A DNA stretch of 64,000 nt, taken from NCBI GenBank assembly GCA_951406725.2, contig OX597816.1, positions 88,784,001 through 88,848,000 on the forward strand, written 5' to 3'. How positions within the stretch are numbered: the first letter of the stretch is position 1; every line of letters begins with the position of its first letter. Under the pieces are notes generated by a model. The model did no database searches, had not been told where the DNA came from, and was given only the letters and a program-made list of their open reading frames with translations. This DNA comes from Octopus vulgaris. Taxonomy: Eukaryota. The translations under genes were made by a program, and so were the position numbers. This document shows, in pieces, positions 12,927-57,927 of this stretch.

Positions 12927-13254
12927 GGAGATGTACTTGCATAGCAAGTGACCTGATCTGAGATCGTGTGCTGAAACGAAAACATTGCAGCGTGGAAGGT
13001 CTTTATAAGCCATTTAAGAAACACACAAAAACCGTTAAATTCACTTCAACATTTAAATTTAATTTGTCAAAATATTTTCGTCGCTTTGAGACCGCGACCT
13101 GTTCACTGAGATGCAGCACGGAATTTTATCAGTGAACAAGTCACGGTCTAAAAGCGATGAAATATTTTGGCATATTAAATTCAAATGTTGAAGTGAATCC
13201 AACGGGTTTTATGTGTTTCTTAAATGGCTTATAAACACCTTCCACGCTGCAATT
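12927..13254. mobile_element. Foldback insertion (~125-bp arms) with 14-bp TSD; probable Penelope inverted pseudo-LTR remnant
   Basis: 12984-13109 is nearly the reverse complement of 13129-13253. GTATTAACTATTCT flanks both sides (12913-12926, 13255-13268). A 57-bp unpaired extension lies on one side, and the arms contain a hammerhead-like motif. Confidence 0.8.
13067..13109 (-). ncRNA. Type I hammerhead ribozyme-like motif, G3-C8 core variant
   Basis: Minus strand: tca GTGAACA g GTCGC ggtctcaaa GCGAC GAAA atat TT tga (stem I, core, 5-bp stem II, GAAA, palindromic stem III, UH). Confidence 0.65.
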
Positions 13255-14711
13255 GTATTAACTATTCTTTCGGCTAGAATTTAATTAAGATGCCGCATTA
13301 TTCCACTAAAATATTTTAGGTTGCCTGTCATGTGCTTCAAATTTTTAGCAAAATTTGCTTAATTTGTGAAAGAAAATAGCGAAGGATTATTATGCTTTAG
13401 AATACTCTAACATTTGTTTCAGATTATTGTACATGGATATTTTTCAGATTCACATTATTTTTTGCATAACAACAACATATAAATCGTACAAACTCTACTA
13501 ATATATTTTAGTTTGACCGTATTCATGACGTTTGTGGTCTAACAAAGCTCTCTGTGCTGCTTCTATCAATGCTATTTTCCGCTACATTTGATGATAATAT
13601 TCAAAACATATTTAAAAAATATCATACTATATAGTCCGTGCAGAAACACACATACACACACACACACAAACACATACACACGAATGTATATAGATAGATA
13701 GATACAGGCATACATACATAGACATACACGCACGCACACATACACATATATATGTAAATGTATATATATATATGAGTGTGTGTGCGGTGTGTGTCTGTGT
13801 GTATGCATGTATATGGTTGGGAGATTTATGTAAGTGGTTGAGAACTTACTTATATCTGCACATTAATGAATGGCTTTTTTTCTATAAAAGAATATCATTA
13901 TTCAAAAAAAAGATAGTAAAAGTTTTTCAAGTTCAATCGTATGAAATTAGATTTCAAAAAGTCACAAAGACCCAGATACATGTTTCAGTTAAACATCCTC
14001 TAATGTAAACTCTGAATAATCAGAAGAGATTAAATAGAAGTCTGTTTCTTTTTTTTTTCTTTTTCTTTTTTGCAATTTTCTCCAGAGATTAAATTCACTT
14101 CATTTTACAAAGTTGAAAATAAATGCAAACTTATATATATATATATATATATATATATATATATATATATATATATATATATAAAATTTATATATATAAA
14201 TGTATGTATATGTATATATTTATATACATGCATATACAGATTTGCACATATATGTGTGTGCGTATGTGTGTGTACTTATATATATATGGATGGAGTCAGA
14301 ATATATAACGAATATATAACTTGCTTTTTTTATCTCCGAAAAGTAACTGGATTGACGTTAAAAGAAACTTACTTTGAGTAAGCGAGTACATAAAATGTTT
14401 TGTTTATTCAGCGGAATTTCTGAAACACATCAGCAAATAGACTGGATCGATAAGAAGGTTATCACAACGAATTAAATAAAGACATATATAGATATGCCTT
14501 GTAAGCATTTAATTTGACTTTGTAAACATTGTGCATCTTAAGACCATGAACGAGGCAAATAGCGAAATCTAGAGACATTCACATAATAAAGAAATGAATC
14601 TTTTTTTTAAGTTCACACACACACACACATATACATATATATGTGTGAGTGCGTGTGTATGTATGTATGTATGTATGTATGTATGTATGTATGTATGTAT
14701 GTATGTATGTA

Positions 14712-15010
14712 TTGGGTTGGCAACTAAGTTCCCACCGTTTTTTATTTAATTTTAGAATTTATTGCGTTTTTAAATTTTGGAATCTATTTTTTTCGGGAAT
14801 TCTATATTTGAATCATTTTGGATTCTTTTTTTTTTTTTCAAGTTAATCTTAGTTAATATTTGTTTATTTTCAAATCATTTAAATGGAATGTAAAGTTAAG
14901 GAAAACGAGCATTTTCGACACTTTTAATCAAGGTTCTAAGGCCGCAAAAGCTGCTCGCGGCATTTGTGCTGTGTATGGAAAGGGTACCATAGCTTAAAGA
15001 ACTGCTCGAT
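14712..15010 (+). mobile_element. mariner 5' fragment (TIR plus transposase N-terminal HTH)
   Basis: TA followed by TTGGGTTGGCAACTAAGT TIR; ATG at 14883 gives MECKVKENEHFRH..NQGSKAAKAARGICAVYGKG, a mariner HTH. Confidence 0.8.
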
Positions 15011-15656
15011 ATGTAGAGTTGTAATGACGTGTAAGGATTCTCAGAATGAGCGTGTTAGATATGCAGTTATATAACCACACTGGGCGAAATTGGGTGGCCA
15101 GCACCACAAATGCACAGACTGAAAGCAAGCTGAAACTATGTGACATCATTGGAATTACATGCACATGATGGCAGGGTCTCGGTACTTCCTATTTCCAACA
15201 ACAAAGCAAATATCAAAGAGAGATGGTCTATGGTCCGGCAGTATTAAGCCTCCAGGAGGGACACTACATGGTACCCCCCAAAATGGTCATTTTGAGAAAC
15301 CTGTGGAAACCCCTGCTAGGGGTGGTATATTACAGAGTTCTAACGTCAAAAACAGTTGCGGAGAATTTGAGGAGAAAAGAGTACTGTGGGACATATTGTC
15401 AGGTTACAAAATATCTGGACGCCAGGAAGAGATGAGCAGAGATTTGGCCACCTATGCTGGTCTATCCCCAAAAGGATGTTACTATGCAGGGCGGAAATAC
15501 CAGAGGATTCATTTGATACCGTCTGAAATCAGTTGCTCATATTCAAAGCTACATTCACCAAGGTGAATGGAAAGGAAGCATTTTCTTTTAGATGTTGTCA
15601 ATATTATGTTGTCAATATATATATATTGGAAGGTTTGGAGATGATGTACAGGTATT

Positions 15657-55312: not shown

Positions 55313-56539
55313 CTTTGTATATTTTTCCCTCAAGGGCTATTCTTTACTGGAAAGCAATACTCTAGTATTGCATTACTAATTTATATATATATATATTTCC
55401 ATATATATGTGCGTGTGCGCGCGTTGGCGTGTGTGTATGTGTGTGTGTGTTTGTGAAGTATAGGCAGCAGCAATAAGAGAAGCTCATTTGTAAAGTATTG
55501 TGTTTTAAATTAGTCGTTTATTTCCTGTGCTGCAATACTTTTGTCACATACCCTTAGAAAGCAGGTTGTGGTGAAAATCGTATTTTATAAATATGCAAAC
55601 AAAGATTTCTAAATAATTTACTCGAAATTCCGAAACCCTGCTGATCCTTCATTCTTAAGTGACTATACCTCAGCTATAGCAGAAAATATTGAAAATATCG
55701 GTACAGAAAGACGGGGATATTGTTGTTCCCAATTATGTAATTAAAATGTTTGATAATAGTGTTTGAAGTATGGTAAAATGTACTTTGAGATTTCTTTAAA
55801 AGAGTACATATACAAGAGCATTTTAGTGTTTAAATTGTATAGATATACACGACTGGATAGATAAATCCATCAAATCTTTGCTCTTGTTCTCTACCATGTA
55901 TTCTTTTAAATAAAATGCAATTCAATGTTGATGAGAATATTACAAATCGAATTAATATTCTACTTGAAGCATGCACAACCTATTATAAAATCTACAAGCA
56001 CTACAAGAAAATCTCTATTTCTCTGCCTATTTTACTGTAAAATGATCCACACCTCTCGAAAACTGGTTCTATTACAATTTAGGAATATAATTGTACCCCA
56101 AAACTAACAAAAATGCTTAGAGTAAAGCTCTCTGAAAATCATAATTGCGCCAGACCAATTTTGACTCCCTTAGAGAATATTCTGGCATGCATTGTGAGGA
56201 ATATCCTGATATACTACATCACAGTTTATTAACCGCAAGTTCCACAATAAGTCGACTACTGTACAAATCAGTCAGAAATGACGCCAGTACCACAGTTGTT
56301 ACTATGGTGCTGGTTTGCGTGTTTACATTTTTGATGGTTTGTCAACAACTATACAATATCTATTTTATTCACAACAGCGCATATATTTGAAGAACTTATA
56401 CATAAGAAACTATTTCTTATAATCGTCGTTTTGAAATAATTTAACGTTAAACACCATGTAGTATGCAAAAATATCCATTCATGTTATCACATTTGCTTGA
56501 TTGTTTTAGTTACGACAATATCCGCTCCGAAACATCAGA

Positions 56540-56910
56540 GAAAGTGTGTTTCATAATTGTGTATTAAGTTACTTTGATTAAAGTAGAGACAGAGTGACGA
56601 ATTGATAGGGGGTAGGTTTAGAGAGAAAGAACTGACAGGGGAGCTAATAAGGATACGTGGGTAGAGAGATGGAAGAGACGATATCAAGAATAGTTTAAGG
56701 AAGATGTTGGAATTTAATTGGACAGAGAAAGGGGCATAAGAATGCTCTGGTATGGTTGTTTTCTTTGTTGTATGTCCAAGTATTGTTTTTACATGTATAG
56801 GAATAGCAGATACCAAAATAAACTTACACCTATGGTGGATTCCGATCTGATAATACTTGTCCACGTGTTGCAAAAGACGCAATATTGAACACAGAAGACC
56901 TACCGCAAAT
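56540..56910 (-). mobile_element. Possible decayed Penelope GIY-YIG fragment
   Basis: Minus strand YCVFCNT../GQ..IG resembles 'IYCI.C..C...YIG'; frameshifted. Confidence 0.35.
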
Positions 56911-57876
56911 AATATTTAAAAGAAAACAATCAAAATCACTCACCTCCAACCACCCATGACTATTCGATCCCATCGCTCTAGCAACATAGTTTGCAGTAGA
57001 ACTAGTCTTAGTTGTGTGGGCCAACTAAAAGTGAATTGTTTGTTGTCACAATGATAGGTTTATCATAGTCTATGTATACATATCTAATATTACGACAAAT
57101 GTTCCTACTACAGAAAAGCTCGGTAAAGAGGCTCTCTATGTTTATCACGAAATTGTTGGCAACTTACAAAATTTCTTCGAACTGATCGGATGAGCTCTAA
57201 CATGCTGTCTCTTTTCCACACATTCTCCCTCTCTCCCTCTCTACACATCTCTCTCTCTCAACCCCCTCCCTCTCTTTCTCTCTGCTTCGCTATTCCTGTC
57301 TGGGGGCATACGTTTTTGAGACTAGTTTTTTACTGATTCTATGAGATGGTAATGTTTATTTAGAAGACTCTAAGTCGGAGATAATTATTGTTTACTAGTC
57401 TTTGCAGTACTATTGATCTACGTTAAACTAAACTCCATCTCTTTCTTCCTCTTTTTTCTCCCCTTCCCCTTCTCTTTCTCTCTAATTACTGGCAAGGAAT
57501 GGATCTACTTTGTGTTTGCAGCAATGACTGCATTATTCTGCTTTACTCCATTATCTTTCTTAATTTTAACGAATTAACTGTTATATAATCAACGTTGAGT
57601 TTTTAATATATTTCTTCGTTTGTCATACCAACAAACACATTGCTCTTATCTCTTAAACATATTACGATGTTGTTTTTCAGATCCGTCCTAAAAAGCTTGT
57701 TTGCGATTCTTATCCACTAATAATTCTGTTGTGTTTACATACGTGAGCGTAAATAAATTTCATCGTCAGAAGACAAAAGTTACATAACGTATTACAAAAG
57801 TAACAGTAAAACTGGGTATGGCGTTACGATATAATTTGTTAAAAGACATAAAACACATTTTTGAATACTAGGAAGA

Positions 57877-57927
57877 GTTTGATTTGAAACCCTTTATGGA
57901 CGGGAAACCTAAGGTAATCCCATAAAC
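57877..57927 (+). ncRNA. Hammerhead-like motif, U3-A8 variant
   Basis: gttt GAT TTGAAAC CC tttatggac GG GAAA CCTaAGG TA ATC ccat aaac; position 9 is non-canonical; flanked by a short IR (aaagacataaa / tttatgtcttt). Confidence 0.45.

Follow-up and report, generated by a model that had tools for sequence, protein, structure and literature searches.

Hammerhead motifs of Penelope-like elements in Octopus vulgaris with four Watson–Crick pairs at core positions 3 and 8

Introduction

The subject of this study is a set of small hammerhead ribozyme motifs found in repeat families, designated here by letters, in a window of 64,000 nucleotides of the Octopus vulgaris genome (contig OX597816.1, positions 88,784,001 to 88,848,000 of the forward strand; coordinates below count from the first letter of this window). 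As the first-pass annotation of the window had proposed, all four Watson–Crick forms of the core 3–8 pair (C–G, U–A, A–U and G–C) occur in this one genome; they do so as family-level states, and none is matched by Rfam. The pair covaries from one family to another, with no such change inside a family. The motifs are hammerheads of the pseudo-long terminal repeats (pLTRs) that Penelope-like elements (PLEs) carry, a known class. From sequence comparison, we put at roughly 0.7 the probability that they are 3' motifs of several retroelement families whose fixed 3–8 differences reflect selection on founder elements that kept the pair for slow, dimer- or protein-assisted cutting.

Penelope hammerheads are poor cutters alone, and one of them was dispensable for insertion in vitro. 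The octopus genome offers a natural test panel that could separate cleavage from binding roles: family-fixed A3–U8 and G3–C8 point to selection on active-site geometry, whereas U6 in a family of 15,000 copies suggests chemistry that is relaxed or assisted by protein. The variants also illustrate how much escapes standard descriptors.

Results

Pairing at positions 3 and 8

The search descriptor left N3 and N8 free and required stem I, stem II, GAAA, a palindromic A15.1–U16.1 stretch and H17; it was tuned after the sites had been seen, and a 2-bp G–C stem II was permitted so that the site at 22808 passes. For each site, 30 loci were retrieved from the 2.8 Gb genome and aligned. Within the window, which is 36% G+C and holds many microsatellites and mobile-element fragments, the descriptor passes 13106 (G3–C8), 22808 (A3–U8) and 25922 (U3–A8). 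Our least biased sample, which joins the window to 20 pieces of 10 kb taken at even spacing (200 kb from one chromosome, 264 kb in total), held five matches, all Watson–Crick at 3–8, whereas 30 shuffles averaged 0.20 matches and 0.03 paired ones. Window sites account for three of the five, and both matches in the 200 kb beyond the window are paired. The flanks of the loci (608 kb) gave 13 matches, including extra copies of the queried families, of which 12 are paired, against 0.92 and 0.17 in 12 shuffles. The shuffled-sequence check proposed by the first-pass annotation thus found far fewer motifs in shuffles in both samples. When descriptor matches with A6 are pooled, 17 of 18 are Watson–Crick at 3–8, against about one match in shuffles. 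Permuting N8 gives p = 7e-5 among 11 families and p = 9e-4 among the eight families found blind to 3–8; the permutation excludes family G and treats families as independent, and their relatedness makes these values optimistic.

The core of a PLE minimal type I hammerhead, N3-U-G-A-N-N8-A...GAAA with U16.1, H17 and a 3–8 pair, is present in families A, B, C, D, F, H, I, J and K, although the window copies at 37301 and 57884 themselves lack it. By descriptor and folding, stems I and II are formable in A, B, C, E, F, H, I and J, whereas G fails, and the 10.1–11.1 pair is irregular in C and D. Helix III is a palindrome across families (ACCGGT, AATATT, AGCGCT, ACGT, AATT or ACATGT), except in family G, where AAAT is non-palindromic. 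Rfam covariance-model scans matched no hammerhead family and returned just microsatellite and hairpin look-alikes.

All seven core heptamers that had been listed for the window lie at their places and on their strands, with the mirror of 16469 at 15810 (minus strand), but not all belong to hammerheads. The folds at 13106 and 22808 are clean and pass the descriptor with the complete architecture claimed for them; 52115 passes only when a non-A6 base is allowed, 37301 is decayed, 55059 is doubtful and 57884 is an artefact. Covariation inside families, which the compensatory swaps of that annotation might have implied, was not found: the first 100 family B matches hold eight departures, none of them compensatory. 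Because within-family changes are non-compensatory, the swaps distinguish founder lineages from one another, and the copies in the genome undergo neutral decay.

The same absence of within-family covariation would suit a founder effect, in which families copy the hammerhead relic of a master element, the four pair types arise by drift and the pattern comes partly from the picking of pairing sites. The earlier list was indeed selected for pairing and includes the artefact at 57884, and just one A–U and one G–C family are known, wider patterns having added none. We nevertheless regard this explanation as very unlikely: families H, I, J, K and M, found without regard to 3–8, all pair, and of the 16 possible states the 12 that are non-Watson–Crick are fixed in no family seen.

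Family B, G3–C8

The G3–C8 pair is carried by a minimal type I hammerhead at 13067–13109 (minus strand; core GTGAACA at 13106–13100), which has an extra G after A9, a 5-bp stem II and the palindrome AATATT. Stem I is 3 bp in this copy, where the arm is truncated, and 7–8 bp in complete arms. A 35-place pattern for the family has 1,029 exact genome matches against none in the control; this count, like those for families A and E below, is a lower bound on copy number. The core is fixed in 27 of 33 copies, and with positions 3, 7 and 8 left free 92 of the first 100 matches are G3–C8 (a hand count in which some rows are segmental duplicates). The window insertion (12927–13259) consists of two head-to-head arms, with a second, decayed core at 13132 (plus strand) and a tail on one side only. 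One family B insertion recurs with more than 700 nt of flank across one chromosome (L263, L267, L268, L269 and L270), where it is carried by a larger repeat or duplication.

All nine unselected family B loci are inverted structures, and no open reading frame (ORF) was found in 39 loci and two longer stretches, as might be expected if B (and H) were palindromic, DNA-transposon-like miniature elements resembling hammerheads by chance. Such a coincidence is highly improbable: the arms of family B break at variable points immediately 5' of the motif, with a one-sided tail, as in described PLE insertions, and the motif has every core, stem and palindrome feature together with a U–A/U–G wobble variant in stem I. 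A kinship of B and H was considered and dropped, the alignment of their tails being no better than chance (p = 0.10).

Family A, A3–U8

Family A is represented at 22778–22814 (minus strand) by a minimal type I hammerhead with core ATGAATA at 22808–22802, a 2-bp G–C stem II, the palindrome ACCGGT, the cut site GUC and a 6-bp stem I; its pattern has 651 exact genome matches against none in the control. The core is fixed in 34 of 35 copies, the loci having been chosen by a pattern that includes it. Upstream on the same strand lies the 3' part of a Penelope-like ORF (23093–23833), broken and 5'-truncated, with the end of the reverse transcriptase (RT) region, a CX4CxxC linker and a GIY-YIG endonuclease. 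PF01541 scores 27.2 bits there against a Pfam cut-off of 22.6, with tblastn support as well; eight longer homologs contain PF00078 in six, PF01541 in six and PF26215 in all eight. A same-strand PLE endonuclease match occurs in 13 of 30 family A loci, and 12 of these end 265–362 nt before the core. Contigs from four sequencing runs cover the family A stretch, and such assembled contigs cannot show RNA ends.

In this family A3-U4-G5 reads ATG (window 22808–22750, minus strand; L272 4660–4600, minus strand), and complete copies have a frame of 18 codons and a donor-like GTAAGT about 35 nt past the cut site; a second role of the core as a start codon is possible. A neighbouring 762-aa frame with Helitron_like_N and STPR domains (20338–22626, plus strand) ends next to the family A tail.

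Families C, H, I and J, U3–A8

The U3–A8 form occurs in four families. The hammerhead-like motif of family C (16456–16507, plus strand) has core TTGAAAA at 16469–16475 and palindrome AGCGCT, with a fixed C10.1–A11.1 mismatch in stem II and a stem I consisting of a 2-bp proximal part followed by a bulge; TTGAAAA is present in 24 of 24 copies. An inverted copy of the family C end lies at 15730–15886 (minus strand, core at 15810–15804). Family H, unlisted in the earlier annotation, provides a minimal hammerhead at 25889–25925 (minus strand) with core TTGAAAA at 25922–25916, fixed in 22 of 28 copies, and its second arm begins at 25926 (plus strand). Further U3–A8 hammerheads with good stems were found in family I (L246:8794, minus strand) and family J (L110:956, plus strand). 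The tail score between A and J is inflated by TA repeats; an endonuclease tree joins the two only weakly (82/89).

Family E, the U6 lineage

The window copy of family E (52110–52147, plus strand; 4-bp stem II, palindrome ACGT, 5-bp stem I) has core CTGTCGA at 52115–52121, which is C3–G8 but carries U6, violating the invariant A6 that all other families satisfy. The earlier annotation gave this core without remarking on the broken A6. With positions 3, 6, 7 and 8 free, the family has 15,498 exact genome matches against none in the control and is the most abundant one measured. Its first 100 matches, counted by hand, have C3 in 99, G8 in 97 and U6 in 96 (A in two, C and G in one each), and N7 in the U6 copies is T in 40, A in 26, C in 19 and G in 11. 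In the 21 copies found in flanks, two of which lack a core, the core and stems are kept and the surrounding sequence, N7 and H17 vary; 16 of the 19 core-bearing copies have U6. U6 extends over diverged subfamilies. In a tree of 40 copies, it falls within a single well-supported lineage, along with A6 relatives having the same stem II, and U6 may have spread from one origin; L215 and L116 are natural A6 relatives of family E. Decay of CpG does not account for the core pattern because C7–A8 occurs once. An auto-inhibited fold due to U6 was likewise rejected, G5 pairing probabilities being 0.13–0.96 in four U6 copies and 0.05 and 0.79 in two A6 copies.

Family E is classed here as a hammerhead-derived variant outside the consensus, and it is predicted to cut weakly at best, though the rest of its core is kept. 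The fixed U6 in so large a family argues that efficient cleavage is not needed in every lineage. One could go further and suppose that the fold is kept chiefly because it serves to bind or position the element's RT-endonuclease, or has a regulatory role as an RNA structure, with cleavage incidental and open to loss, as in U6. The abundance of family E and the conservation of its core and stems amid diverging flanks agree with this, as do the report that mutants of the anole PAc hammerhead insert normally in vitro, with no RNA ends found at its cut site (PMC11167929), and the description of Naiads as thriving without canonical hammerheads (PMC8557442). We consider it unlikely nonetheless, since Watson–Crick retention at 3–8 in any of four forms is a requirement of the catalytic conformation (PMC3884650 describes C3–G8 as forming in the tertiary-stabilised core), and the variation at N7 and H17 is exactly what the rules of cleavage permit.

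Canonical, decayed and rejected sites

The consensus of family F is a canonical C3–G8 minimal hammerhead (CTGATGA in 13 of 15 copies), of which the window holds a decayed copy at 37296–37342 (plus strand; core 37301) with G12 changed to U and a broken 10.1–11.1 pair. Families K and M, found in flanks or random pieces, are also C3–G8; in K, the sister family of E, six of 14 copies have U4C (core CCGACGA) alongside CTGACGA copies, the CCGACGA copies of K and a relative being L007:2046, L021:2310, L139:1712, L174:2336, L266:1831 and L002:1170.

The reading of TTGAAAC at 57884 as a U–A hammerhead is withdrawn. It is a junction artefact of family D, whose 5'-truncated fragment occupies 57887–57952 (plus strand): homology starts at 57887, which makes the TTG flanking DNA, and in addition AAAC is loop II and position 9 would be C. 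The family's own core, further upstream, is canonical CTGACGA or CTGATGA in nine of 14 copies.

Family G is a doubtful hammerhead (55053–55114, plus strand; CTGATGA core at 55059) with poor stems I and III; stem I is broken, stem III is the non-palindromic AAAT and the predicted fold buries the core, and the site is not counted. It belongs to a young repeat of about 430 nt (54956–55384), 96–99% identical, whose partial tandem ends lie in (TA)n and which has a donor-like GTAAGA.

Link to Penelope-like elements

The annotation's comparison with the minimal hammerheads of PLEs is borne out, as GIY-YIG endonuclease genes precede families A, C, E and J; from these four families behind such genes it follows that the motifs are PLE pLTR hammerheads. 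For family E, an endonuclease remnant lies at 50790–51176 (plus strand; PF01541 at E 0.0025, below the cut-off, with tblastn matches to PLE proteins). The link holds in the window and in L141 and L178, and the 3' untranslated region between the window remnant and the motif is common to L094, L141 and L178. The family C motif lies 1,293 nt after the end of the GIY-YIG gene in L076, and family J follows the endonuclease end in L110 and L257. The RT/GIY-YIG ORFs of A, C, E and J are fragments, and no full-length element was recovered from them; four pairs of nearby copies, considered as candidate full-length elements, are duplications with no PLE ORF between them except an endonuclease fragment in L273.

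Families B, H and C form head-to-head arms with one-sided tails beside (TA)n, and 5' truncation, inverted or partial tandem copies and one-sided tails or microsatellite targets are seen across A, B, C, G and H. Arms set head to head, tails on a single side and targets of (TA)n fit the PLE insertion structure as described in PMC8557442. Families B, G and H may be non-autonomous. Rather than working ribozymes, the majority of the copies in the genome are products of insertion that are truncated, inverted or decayed. No tandem array of units each with a complete hammerhead is present in the window, where family G forms partial tandems only, with its poor motif.

Other mobile-element pieces in the window are a mariner-type transposase fragment (PF01359; 35275–35718, minus strand) and two reverse-transcriptase-like pieces, one at 53357–53680 (plus strand) with a PF00078 match and one at 28581–29519 (minus strand) judged by eye only.

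Discussion

In B, C, E, F, H, I and J the predicted monomer folds contain stems I and II, and for three of the 11 families folded (C, I and J) the dimer of lowest energy is predicted to be a double hammerhead. Slow cutting of tandem transcripts, with the motifs acting as dimers, is the mode proposed for PLE hammerheads (PMC4209133; PMC6765202), and that of the anole PLE is reported to need protein assistance, to regain part of its cleavage with C3G/G8C and not to be required for insertion in vitro (PMC11167929). A mechanism can be proposed along these lines. In founder elements, the 3–8 pair would have been kept under selection so that tandem transcripts cut, the palindromic stem III pairing two motifs of one transcript into a double hammerhead, and cleavage would have been slow and dimer- or protein-assisted. 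The C3–G8 pair is described as forming in the tertiary-stabilised active core (PMC3884650), and G8 as acting through its 2'-OH (PMC6155905); because G8 works through this group and pairs with position 3, any Watson–Crick pair at 3–8 may preserve the active geometry. Swaps would have gone via wobble or mismatch intermediates. Such wobble states may be tolerated, since a U3–G8 row is present in the alignment of PMC4209133, and the intermediates could be survivable because insertion does not strictly need cleavage.

Several observations weigh against selection on founder elements for the 3–8 pair. The eight family B departures among the first 100 matches are non-Watson–Crick. Independent swaps are few (at least three) and the families are related. 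Two wider genome patterns revealed no A–U or G–C family beyond A and B: a family-free pattern (non-C3/non-G8 with AACGT) gave 771 matches against 1,069 in the control, mostly register-shifted decayed copies and thus uninformative, and a purine-3/pyrimidine-8 pattern with a GSSC loop gave eight against 13, with no second A–U or G–C family. U6 in family E and U4C in family K are core changes expected to impair cleavage and yet are well spread. For B, D, F, G and H, roughly 30 loci, each 3 kb long, yielded no ORF, these being short and mostly 5'-truncated. The predicted dimers of A, B, D, E, F, G, H and K are not double hammerheads. Finally, a type III hammerhead is reported to be rescued by the G:C swap only, not by U–A or A–U (PMC9901934). 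The same source gives low activity for every single CUGA change in one type III ribozyme, as do PMC3088659 and PMC7151607 for A6C.

A bolder extension of the proposal is that all four 3–8 pairings and the U6 lineage work in the cell, with the Penelope protein or dimer formation supporting cores that RNA-only rules would call crippled; we hold it to be possible, tentatively and at less than even odds. If true, much of the hammerhead content of genomes escapes the CUGANGA consensus, amounting in this case to tens of thousands of copies.

Comparison with known hammerhead systems

The closest known system is the minimal hammerhead ribozyme of metazoan PLEs (Cervera and de la Pena 2014, PMC4209133). 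As described there, it shares with the octopus motifs the type I topology, the short stem I, the extra base after A9, G10.1–C11.1, the palindromic helix III, the pLTR location, the many families per genome and the U3–A8 variant, with about 1,300 matches in Schistosoma mansoni. Small PLE-associated dimer-cleaving variants (Lunse, Weinberg and Breaker) belong to the same class, judging by title and the review PMC6765202, and their alignments may contain A3–U8, G3–C8 or U6 variants. Non-LTR (long terminal repeat) retrozymes (bioRxiv 10.64898/2026.07.22.740005) are likewise described as non-autonomous PLE-derived repeats with type I hammerheads; they are tandem arrays, whereas the octopus families are dispersed, truncated or inverted insertions.

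Natural core variants are also on record (Perreault et al. 2011, PMC3088659; Naghdi et al. 2020, PMC7151607). These accounts share the U3–A8 covariation and include a natural A6C of low activity with a preference for Mn2+ and a U4C in a viroid; their U3–A8 and A6C occur in single phage or bacterial motifs, and the available texts hold no A3–U8, G3–C8, U6 or high-copy animal repeats. Full-text literature searches, with most subscription papers outside their scope, found no natural A3–U8, G3–C8 or U6 hammerhead families. In the available texts, PMC12192606 and the retrozyme preprint have nothing on these variants, and the Octopus vulgaris repeat annotation (PMC13282606) names Penelope families without the words ribozyme or hammerhead. 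The suggestion that the families are undescribed may hold in part: U3–A8 is already published in PLEs (PMC4209133) and in phages, and natural high-copy A3–U8 and G3–C8 were not found in our searches.

The PAc hammerhead of the anole Poseidon element (PMC11167929) also lies in a PLE pLTR, and engineered G3–C8 is reported to restore its cleavage in part; what is a laboratory mutant there is the natural state in octopus family B. The supplementary alignment of PMC4209133, in the part available, has 56 rows, of which 53 are C3–G8, two U3–A8 and one U3–G8, all with A6 and none from a cephalopod. Set against these rows, the octopus families fixed for A3–U8, G3–C8 or U6 range in size from hundreds to more than 15,000 exact copies.

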